Part shown: piece by piece, positions 18,797 to 22,000 of the stretch
Numbering within the stretch: position 1 is the first letter of the stretch
Layout: the number at the start of each line of letters is the position of its first letter
Assembly: GCA_964016885.1 (NCBI GenBank)
Contig: OZ024766.1
Location: forward strand, 12,586,001 to 12,650,000
Direction of reading: 5' to 3'
DNA length: 64,000 nucleotides
Source: Eledone cirrhosa
Lineage: Eukaryota
Notes under the pieces: model-generated
Seen by the model: the letters and a program-made list of their open reading frames with translations, nothing else
Databases searched by the model: none
Told to the model about the DNA's origin: nothing
Program-made: the position numbers and the translations under genes

Positions 18797-19030
18797 ATGT
18801 ACAGACAGAAAATGATGACAATGAGGTGAGAAGAGAATAGAGAATGTCAGACCAGGCAGTGTGATGTCTATGGTAACATAGTTTAAAAAATTTGAGCAAC
18901 AGAGTAAGAGATCTCTTTTCATTTTTGAAAAGCAGTTAACTGTTTATAAATCATCATGCTCTGGAGAGAGACCCTTTCGTTGTGAAACATGGAAAATCTT
19001 TTGTTGTAAGCAGTCATTTAAATAAACATG
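18797..19030 (+). pseudogene. Decayed C2H2 zinc-finger gene 5' portion leading into the satellite
   Basis: RQCDVYGNIV* (~18855-18885), then QLTVYKSSCSGERPFRCET[-2 nt]GKSFVVSSHLNKH (18932-19029). Confidence 0.75.
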
Positions 19031-22000
19031 TGGGGAATATTTTGGCAGTAGCACTAATTTGAATAAACACAAAAGACCACACTGGAGAGAGGCCATTGTG
19101 AAATATGTGTGGAATATTTTGACAGTAGCACTAATTTGAATAAACACAAAAGACCACACTGGAAAGAGGCCATTGTGAAATATGCGGGGAATATTTTGAC
19201 AGTAGTACTAATATGAATAAACACAAAAGACCACACTGGAGAGAGGCCATTGTGAAATATGTGGGGAATATTTTGACAGTAGTACTAATTTGAATAAACA
19301 CAAAAGACCACACTGGAGAGAGGCCATTGTGAAATATGTGGGGAATATTTTGACAGTAGCACTAATTTGAATAAACACAAAAGACCACACTGGAGAGAGG
19401 CCATCGTGAAATATGTGGGGAATATTTTGGCAGTAGCACTAATTTGAATAAACACAAAAGACCACACTGGAGAGAGGCCATTTTGAAATATGTGGGGAAT
19501 ATTTTGACAGTAGCACTAATTTGAATAAACACAAAAGACCACACTGGAGAGAGGCCATTGTGAAATATGTGGGGAATATTTTGGCAGTAGCACTAATTTG
19601 AATAAACACAAAAGACCACACTGGAGGGAGGCCATTGTGAAATATGTGGGGAATATTTTGACAGTAGCACTAATTTAAATAAACACAAAAGACCACACTG
19701 GAGAGAGGCCATTGTGAAATATGTGGGGAATATTTTGACAGTAGCACTAATTTGAATAAACACAAAAGACCACACTGGAGAGAGGCCATTGTGAAATATG
19801 TGTGGAATATTTTGACAGTAGCACTAATTTGAATAAACACAAAAGACCACACTGGAGAGAGGCCATTGTGAAATATGTGTGGAATATTTTGACAGTAGCA
19901 CTAATTTAAATAAACACAAAAGACCACACTGGAGAGAAATATTACCATTGTGAAATATGTGGGGAATATTTTGACAGTAGCACTAATTTGAATAAACACA
20001 AAAGACCACACTGGAGAGAGGCCATTGTGAAATATGTGTGGAATATTTTGACAGTAGCACTAATTTGAATAAACACAAAAGACCACACTGGAGAGAGGCC
20101 ATTGTGAAATATGTGTGGAATATTTTGACAGTAGCACTAATTTAAATAAACACAAAAGACCACACTGGAGAGAAATATTACCATTGTGAAATATGTGGGG
20201 AATATTTTGACAGTAGCACTAATTTGAATAAACACAAAAGACCACACTGGAGAGAGGCCACTGTGAAGTATGTGGGGAATATTTTGACAGTAGCACTAAT
20301 TTAAATAAACACAAAAGACTACACTGGAGAGAAATATCACCATTGTGAAATATGTGGGGAATATTTTGACAGTAGCACTAATTTGAATAAACACAAAAGA
20401 CCACACTGGAGAGAGGCCATTGTGAAATATGTGGGGAATATTTTGACAGTAGCACTAATTTGAATAAACACAAAAGACCACACTGGAGAGAGGCCATTGT
20501 GAAATATGTGTGGAATATTTTGACAGTAGCACTAATTTGAATAAACACAAAAGACCACACTGGAAAGAGGCCATTGTGAAATATGTGTGGAATATTTTGA
20601 CAGTAGCACTAATTTGAATAAACACAAAAGACCACACTGGAGAGAGGCCATTTTGAAATATGTGTGGAATATTTTGACAGTAGCACTAATTTGAATAAAC
20701 ACAAAAGACCACACTGGAGAGAGGCCATTGTGAAATATGTGGGGAATATTTTGACAGTAACACTAATTTGAATAAACACAAAAGACCACACTGGAGAGAA
20801 ATATCACCATTGTGAAATATGTGGGGAATATTTTGACAGTAGCACTAATTTGAATAAACACAAAAGACCACACTGGAGAGAGGCAATTGTGAAATATGTG
20901 GGGAATATTTTGACAGTAGCACTAATTTGAATAAACACAAAAGACTACACTAGAGAGAAATATTACCATTGTGAAATATGTGGGGAATATTTTGACAGTA
21001 ACACTAATTTGAATAAACACAAAAGACCACACTGGAGAGAAACATTACCATTGTGAAATATGTGGGGAATATTTTGACAGTAGCACTAATTTGAATAAAC
21101 ACAAAAGACCAAACTGGAGAGAAATATTACCATTGTGAAATATGTGGGGAATATTTTGACAGTAACACTAATTTGAATAAACACAAAAGACCACACTGGA
21201 GAGAGGCCATTATGAAATATGTGGGGAATATTTTGACAGTAGCACTAATTTAAATAAACACAAAAGACCACACTGGAGAGAGGCCATTGTGAAATATGTG
21301 GGGAATATTTTGACAGTAGCACTAATTTGAATAAACACAAAAGACTACAGTGGAGAGAAATATTACCATTGTGAAATATGTGGGGAATATTTTGACAGTA
21401 GCACTAATTTGAATAAACACAAAAGACCACACTGGAGAGAGGCCATTGTGAAATATGTGTGGAATATTTTGACAGTAGCACTAATTTGAATAAACACAAA
21501 AGACCACACTGGAGAGAGGCCATTGTGAAATATGTGTGGAATATTTTGACAGTAGCACTAATTTGAATAAACACAAAAGATCACACTGGAGAGAGGCCAT
21601 TGTGAAATATGTGTGGAATATTTTGACAGTAGCACTAATTTAAATAAACACAAAAGACCACACTGGAGAGAAATATTACCATTGTGAAATATGTGTGGAA
21701 TATTTTGACAGTAGCACTAATTTGAATAAACACAAAAGACCACACTGGAGAGAGGCCATTGTGAAATATGTGGGGAATATTTTGACAGTAGCACTAATTT
21801 GAATAAACACAAAAGACCACACTGGAGAGAAATATCACCATTGTGAAATATGTGGGGAATATTTTGACAGTAGCACTAATTTGAATAAACACAAAAGACC
21901 ACACTGGAGAGAGGCAATTGTGAAATATGTGGGGAATATTTTGACAGTAGCACTAATTTGAATAAACACAAAAGACCAAACTGGAGAGAAATATTACCAT

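Follow-up and report, generated by a model that had tools for sequence, protein, structure and literature searches.

The right-hand part of the 64-kb window (the whole stretch of Eledone cirrhosa DNA analyzed here) is a tandem array of frameshifted C2H2 zinc-finger units, which begins at 19024 against the remains of a zinc-finger exon and runs off the end of the window, with ~45 kb of it seen. Sequence comparison gives good support to an origin of this satellite within a dead zinc-finger exon. We further consider it probable that the satellite grew in place inside an exon that was already dead, whose 5' remnant would be 18797-19028, and that the join between remnant and array arose as a later deletion. 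Early stages of satellite formation can seldom be observed, because the sequence of origin has as a rule disappeared or is not known. In the present case, the parent can be recognized at the level of single codons, frame-breaking losses can be placed in time relative to the expansion, and the animal retains sister copies that lack the deletion; together, these features make the release of a coding minisatellite by lost constraint testable on an assembly.

Table 1. Features of the window discussed in the text (+, plus strand; -, minus strand)
Feature	Position	Strand	Basis or remark
Candidate splice-acceptor-like end of intron before intact zinc-finger exon	13600..13631	+	17/20 pyrimidines before AG at 13630
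Open zinc-finger frame, 301 codons stop to stop, Met at 14058	14040..14945	+	zf-C2H2 E 1e-51, 10 stretches
Decayed tail fingers of intact gene	14946..15090	+	profile E 0.0084 at 15019-15089
Second acceptor-like stretch (pyrimidine tract + CAG), putative start of dead exon	15200..15231	+	
Candidate target-site duplication TAATAT, left copy	15232..15237	.	abuts (CAT)n tail
LINE-type retroelement between intact gene and dead exon	15238..18777	-	right end putative
Candidate target-site duplication, right copy	18778..18783	.	
CDVYGN, likely decayed start of first finger	18860..18877	+	translation; not significant alone
Decayed finger helix, linker, and nearly whole finger with 2-base loss at 18990; last non-satellite finger	18936..19028	+	
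AACA microhomology, likely left by 35-base deletion relative to commoner sister	19025..19028	+	
First, partial satellite unit	19029..19096	+	1/68 bases differ from 77-bp consensus
Satellite array of frameshifted finger units	19097..64000	+	unit segmentation and profile match to intact fingers

An uninterrupted array of frameshifted finger units

When units are divided at their first Cys codon, the array comprises 570 whole units in the window, most of them 77 bp (366) or 82 bp (185) long and the remainder 76 bp (10), 78 bp (5), 79 bp (3), or 84 bp (1). All 570 lie on the plus strand with no inverted or foreign piece among them, and the spacing never exceeds 84 bases, leaving the array uninterrupted. 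Pairwise divergence is low, at 2.9% among 77-bp and 4.0% among 82-bp units. A unit matches a profile built from the 10 fingers of an intact gene upstream in the window (E 3e-11), and the alignment contains a 2-base gap and a 5-base gap, both in the linker—the 82-bp unit has a linker 2 bases short, and the 77-bp unit one that is 2+5 bases short. The two bases absent from the linker of all satellite units fall in an AC run, where slippage is easy. We also compared four of nine listed short-read runs, all as contigs, of which X1 and X2 represent one sample and X5 and X6 two other organisms. The 5-base difference between the unit types recurs in X2, X5, and X6, and both types are present at low depth in X5 and X6; LINE depth in these two runs is about a thousandfold below that in X1 and X2, such that trace DNA of the same animal would be indistinguishable there from a relative. 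X5 and X6 also lack cover on the flank, and we draw nothing about conservation from either run. Metagenome contigs contained no exact copy of a 40-base stretch of the unit.

Several observations bear on whether the array codes. Unit length is divisible by three in only 6 of the 570 units, the longest stop-free run on the sense strand spans 80 codons, and unit variants in a codon table of 565 of 571 cores include stop codons and losses of Cys and His. The 57-base (19-residue) consensus finger core is stop-free and keeps both Cys and the first His. There was no excess of silent changes (12/26 vs 45/145 possible, P 0.17). By its head-to-tail arrangement and its non-coding state, the array is satellite DNA. 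A coding minisatellite of the PRDM9 type, with in-frame 84-base units, was considered and ruled out; the sole 84-base unit is a 77-mer carrying a 7-base duplication.

Exact blocks of up to 36 units are duplicated within the array at lags of 13-441 units, and we detected no fixed higher-order period in the array (best lag identity 0.12 vs a baseline of 0.035). Duplicated blocks of such irregular spacing suggest that unequal exchange or slippage, the likely mechanism, took place repeatedly. Divergence from the consensus was 1.44% in the first 50 units and 1.47-2.11% in later bins, and no graded series from gene to satellite was seen in these bins at the left edge. Two mild signs nonetheless mark this edge as old. 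The longest run of 77-bp units (10, the next longest being 7) lies exactly there, at one of 560 possible start points, and unique units make up 4 of the first 10 units vs 43 of the 560 others (P 0.006, a comparison chosen post hoc), a content equaled by 16 of 561 ten-unit windows. At the other end of the window, between 52131 and 64000, unique units are absent among the last ~150 units, making this the most recently duplicated part seen.

A decayed zinc-finger exon borders the array

The translations that the initial annotation had reported for the flank—CDVYGN, LTVYKSSCSGERPFRCET, and GKSFVVSSHLNKH—are all exact: LTVYKSSCSGERPFRCET is encoded by 18936-18989, after which two bases are lost, and GKSFVVSSHLNKH by 18991-19029, continuing into the array. 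Their interpretation as decayed fingers in the orientation of the array held for 18936-19028 and is weak for CDVYGN taken alone. In chance tests with 500 dinucleotide shuffles each, no shuffle reached the score of 18936-19023 against the intact gene's fingers (47.5) or against three satellite units (58.5), nor that of the whole flank, 18797-19023, against the intact gene (70); the flank finger is thus nearer to the satellite than to the neighboring gene. The reverse complement of the flank, used as a control, scored 41 against the intact gene, which is chance level (reached by 452/500 shuffles). Shorter pieces were less distinctive when tested alone, with 68/500 shuffles reaching the score of 18860-18935 (the part including CDVYGN) and 78/500 that of 18936-18980. 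Likewise, the intact-finger profile matched 18961-19019 at E 0.0095 and CDVYGN at E 0.12. Neither of two flank-only reads contained a Pfam finger, and one was found only in the flank read that takes in the first satellite unit (E 0.0094).

The more 5' part of the flank is less regular. The Cys codon at 18860 precedes the next one, at 18981, by 121 bases, a distance that is neither 84 nor 168 and exceeds one finger by 37 bases. Summed depth in X1 and X2 drops to ~25 at 18900-18943, vs 97-175 in adjoining bins, in the very place where the flank has 37 bases too many, and no contig joint is listed there. No significant similarity was found between the 5' part of the flank and the intact gene's 5' exon (50 and 82/500 shuffles; 97/1000 shuffles).

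Disabling changes in the flank include the frameshift at 18990, Tyr and Cys in place of His, and stops in the CDVYGN frame. C-E-x and N-K-H are common to flank finger and satellite, whereas the intact neighbor has C-D-I and mostly T-R-H or T-K-H; flank and satellite thus belong to one subfamily, of which the neighbor is not the direct parent. Together, these comparisons support the view that the flank is a C2H2 zinc-finger pseudogene, with a TGEKP-type linker in register, on the sense strand, and of the same subfamily as the satellite monomer. Separate 2-base losses break the satellite linker, the intact gene's 11th finger (at 14931), and the flank finger (at 18990).

Sister versions of the flank cross the join with a linker

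The flank had been described as unique sequence, which is contradicted by the presence of at least three versions of it in one short-read sample, the sample from which all evidence on sister copies comes. The window type is represented by a 280-letter contig on 18778-19057, found in both X1 and X2 with 3 differing letters and no gaps, at depths of 5.2 and 7.5. In a commoner sister (X2, depth 97), 31 letters follow 19028 before 19025-19028 is repeated, giving 35 extra bases bounded by AACA on both sides; its substitutions at 18970 and 18991 reach depths of 75-87 in X1 and X2. A rarer sister (depths 10.9 and 14.4 in X1 and X2) has 38 letters between 19028 and 19029 and runs on for 36 and, in X2, 57 letters into a satellite-type finger.

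On visual inspection, the two inserts prove to be linkers of zinc fingers, R-T-H-T-G-E-R-P and R-R-T-H-I-G-E-K-P. A full linker would occupy 43 letters, of which the sisters keep 38 (minus 5) or 35 (minus 8), and the 38-letter form has the same 5-base loss, in the same place, as the 77-bp unit. Also by eye, the commoner sister's linker shares 18 identical bases and the 5-base loss with that of the 77-bp unit, and the rarer sister's shares 16 of those 18; the commoner sister retains the two AC-run bases that no satellite unit has. Following the linkers there is one base and then C-L-T-C or C-L-P-C, whereas the satellite finger opens with C-E-I-C, which means that the unit did not arise by straightforward copying of the sisters' first finger. 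Given that flank and satellite finger are joined by a normal, if broken, linker, the satellite finger would be the next finger of the same dead exon, and it is the shared 5-base loss, together with the 18 identical bases, that makes the dead-exon origin well supported. The 5-base loss lies between short repeats and could have arisen twice.

Since AACA flanks the 35 extra bases of the commoner sister, the join in the window can be read as a microhomology deletion, and what is visible there probably came about later, through loss of 35 bases between a pair of AACA words, and is not a birth scar. In agreement with this, the window flank shows 2 listed differences from the commoner sister and 4 from the rarer one, and therefore derives more simply from the sister with AACA on both sides. 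The initial annotation had already proposed a deletion between microhomologies; this part of its proposal stands, with the word corrected from AAACA to AACA, and the GAAACA-type partner that it had suggested within the array falls away. The GAAACATGTGGGG variant does occur inside the array, as had been claimed, with 8 occurrences and the first at 29957.

Depths of the window type, rarer sister, commoner sister, and satellite stand roughly as 1 : ~2 : ~10-17 : ~2300-4500, bearing in mind that depth does not equal copy number. These ratios correspond to ~180-230 units per flank copy, below the 570+ found here, which hints that not every sister array is this large.

A LINE separates the dead exon from an intact zinc-finger gene

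The intact gene upstream has 10 complete C2H2 fingers of the CDICGKSF type, which is typical of octopuses, and an 11th broken by a 2-base loss. Searching proteins with it revealed no close ancestor (5135 generic finger proteins among 7926 scored; one of the 120 matches listed, P0094 at 54%, is labeled as octopus), and further protein searches gave none either (0/2 candidates; 1/4, an unrelated 45% match, P0122).

The dead exon had been placed in a paralog about 4 kb downstream of this gene. Roughly 3.5 kb of that gap is one LINE, and without the LINE the dead exon would lie ~0.3 kb behind the intact stop. With only ~290 bases from the intact stop to the candidate acceptor in that arrangement, the dead exon would be too close for a promoter of its own. 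It may instead have been an exon that was duplicated or used alternatively until insertion of the LINE cut it off, which is the least certain step of our reconstruction. The candidate acceptor at 15200-15231 is colinear with that of the intact exon at 13600-13631 (7/1000 shuffles in a narrow, post hoc comparison and 50/1000 in a wide one), although 13600-13631 is not the best place for its alignment within 11500-14090. The candidate target-site duplication is a weak signal, expected by chance in 124-253 of 2000 shuffles (6-13%). The window-type contig starts exactly at its right copy, 18778, a start that a private substitution at 18808 would also cause.

The LINE itself, a putative member of the RTE clade, has a reverse transcriptase frame of 724 codons at 15529-17703 on the minus strand (RVT_1 E 6e-31), a (CAT)n tail at ~15238-15255, and very high summed depth in the short reads. 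Depth and joints carry its 5' part to at least 18370, and it probably extends to ~18777. At 17919/17926 it is without ~520 bases that are present in other copies (a joint with 527 letters between in X5/X6), so this copy is likely dead despite its open reverse transcriptase frame. Its 5' region also contains a 54-base direct repeat (94%; 18359-18412 and 18686-18739, 327 bases apart), and other LINE copies skip the stretch between the two.

Other repeats in the window

A second, unrelated satellite with a 49-bp unit occupies 635-5439 (98 copies, 92% matches) and has related short runs at 6855-6969, 8368-8633, 9849-10053, and 15404-15475. Dispersed elements also contain its unit, 2-4 copies at a time, with one such case in the LINE 3' end, and the satellite possibly grew from a retroelement tail. 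A 76-bp unit is present in 5 copies at 7702-8081 and appears to be contained in an inverted pair at 11203-11388 and 12634-12819 (186 bases, 85%, 1245 bases apart).

Origin of the satellite

Beyond the homology, common strand, broken frames, sister versions, and block duplications observed here, we infer expansion in place, a set of recombination processes, and an order of steps. A zinc-finger exon of the C-E-x-C / N-K-H subfamily would first have lost its frame, through the 2-base loss at 18990 and a 5-base linker loss that fits slippage between two CCA words. Copies of the dead cassette would then have spread to several places, in the manner of zinc-finger clusters that undergo segmental duplication, and a further 2-base slip in the linker AC run would have given rise to the 77- and 82-bp units. 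With no frame to keep, slippage, unequal exchange, and conversion—the processes that normally change finger number—may have proceeded unchecked until hundreds of units had accumulated, and this copy would finally have lost 35 bases at its first linker. The run of 77-bp units at the left edge matches the first linker type of the sisters. That this copy, rather than a sister, started the expansion we consider slightly improbable. The locus had been described as the birth site of the satellite, and the dead-exon origin contained in that description is upheld, whereas the locus as birthplace is not, given the multi-copy flank, the secondary join, the young first unit, and a far end of the array that lies beyond the window; with a flank in several copies and a join that is a secondary scar, its uniqueness as birth site is weakened.

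The most serious alternative, though an unlikely one, is birth of the satellite in a different gene of the same zinc-finger subfamily, with later recombination or conversion onto this flank by way of first-finger homology; the present locus would then be a recipient, and the deletion perhaps the crossover scar. Such a history would account for the young first unit and the lack of a decay gradient, for a first finger in the sisters that opens differently from the monomer, and for the existence of at least three flank versions, and an identical join would result from a crossover between the flank AACA and any of the 8 GAAACA-type units. However, AACA already bounds the 35 bases of the commoner sister at either end, so that a local deletion suffices, and both sisters reach a satellite-type finger through a linker nearly identical to that of the 77-bp unit. 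The run made up of 77-bp units alone and the unique units, moreover, sit at the left edge. We regard it as highly unlikely that a mobile satellite, reinserted from a circle or carried by a transposon, landed in a zinc-finger pseudogene by chance microhomology. A retroelement does lie 250 bases upstream of the join, and 436 further loose contig ends exist beyond those listed; yet flank and unit agree in register and subfamily, the undeleted sisters connect flank and finger by a proper linker, and the 570 units are free of inverted or foreign pieces. In addition, the listed loose ends, at 19024 and 19109, are satellite sequence, with no joins to unrelated flanks bearing target-site duplications among them, and Rfam gave 0 matches at E<=1 to any ribozyme or other structured RNA in 15000-19400.

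If the array were still functional, whether coding for many fingers by means of frameshifting or editing or selected as a non-coding RNA or chromatin element acting on zinc-finger genes, the stop-free consensus core with its retained Cys and His residues and the resemblance of the units to intact fingers would be readily understood. This explanation has a still smaller chance of being right, as the frame is broken in all common units, stops and lost Cys or His residues occur among the variants, silent sites show no excess, and the upstream flank is itself frameshifted. The least probable explanation is that the join or the unit frameshifts are assembly or sequencing errors. The contig that bridges the join extends only 29 letters to the right of the microhomology (33 counting it), close to the threshold of 31 letters, and the short-read sample may be the source of the assembly. 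Against this, the same gap-free 280-letter contig was recovered in both X1 and X2, an 86-letter match in X6 spans both frameshift sites without gaps, and the 5-base difference between unit types was observed in three runs. We retain growth inside an already dead zinc-finger exon as the favored explanation.

Implications

More generally, dead zinc-finger exons might act as a nursery for satellites, in which loss of the frame lets the instability of a finger array escape selection and reach tens to hundreds of kilobases, with the cassette caught here at stages of no array, a short array, and a giant one. We put this forward tentatively and judge it somewhat improbable as a general account. If true, it would provide a natural time series of satellite birth out of a protein-coding gene of the host, and coleoids, with their thousands of clustered C2H2 genes, should have given more such satellite families. 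Zinc-finger counts in such genomes could be inflated by satellite arrays, or fingers could be hidden in them. None of this implies a function for the array.

Comparison with known systems

A 2025 review traces satellites to parts of transposons, to rDNA spacers, to micro- and minisatellites, and to satellites of greater age (PMC12692304, section 4), and tandem repeats can start from virtually any sequence (PMC12692304). The array described here resembles the satellites treated in that review in being head-to-tail and non-coding, with <10% divergence, amplification of a short repeat, and block duplications. It differs in its seed, the 84-base codon repeat of a host protein-coding exon; section 4 of the review (PMC12692304) names no protein-coding source. 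In the zinc-finger minisatellite of PRDM9, recombination between repeats, duplication, and slippage alter the 84-base units (bioRxiv 10.1101/2023.09.06.556583), but it keeps its frame and has few fingers, whereas the present array consists of hundreds of 77/82-base units out of frame. Because the frame is gone, the array is not a coding minisatellite of the PRDM9 type despite its similar working.

Zinc-finger clusters grow by segmental duplication that carries along earlier insertions, as seen for mouse KRAB-ZFP genes (PMC11952569), and C2H2 genes have expanded in coleoids, with 2785 reported in Doryteuthis pealeii (PMC9068888). These clusters and the region analyzed here have in common multi-copy cassettes with genes, pseudogenes, and earlier retroelement insertions, and cluster growth of this kind would fit a multi-copy dead cassette. 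We note that no KRAB domain was present among the 25 of 48 Pfam families listed for the window. Both papers concern the duplication of genes and not the conversion of fingers to satellite, and the word "satellite" occurs 0 times in the main texts of PMC11952569 and PMC9068888. Satellites have been discussed as targets of zinc-finger proteins (PMC10547256), and the available portions of PMC5615363 and PMC10547256 contain no case of a zinc-finger-derived satellite.

Searching the literature by title and start of abstract, with subscription journals thinly covered, we found no precedent for a zinc-finger-derived satellite; for a satellite sourced from a dead zinc-finger exon, too, we found none in the literature searched, which falls short of establishing its absence from print. 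Tandem arrays derived from genes are themselves familiar, as in Su(Ste) of Drosophila and D4Z4 of humans, whose kilobase units contain whole genes or pseudogenes. The array in the window is like these in being a tandem array that comes from protein-coding sequence, but its unit is a single broken protein motif.
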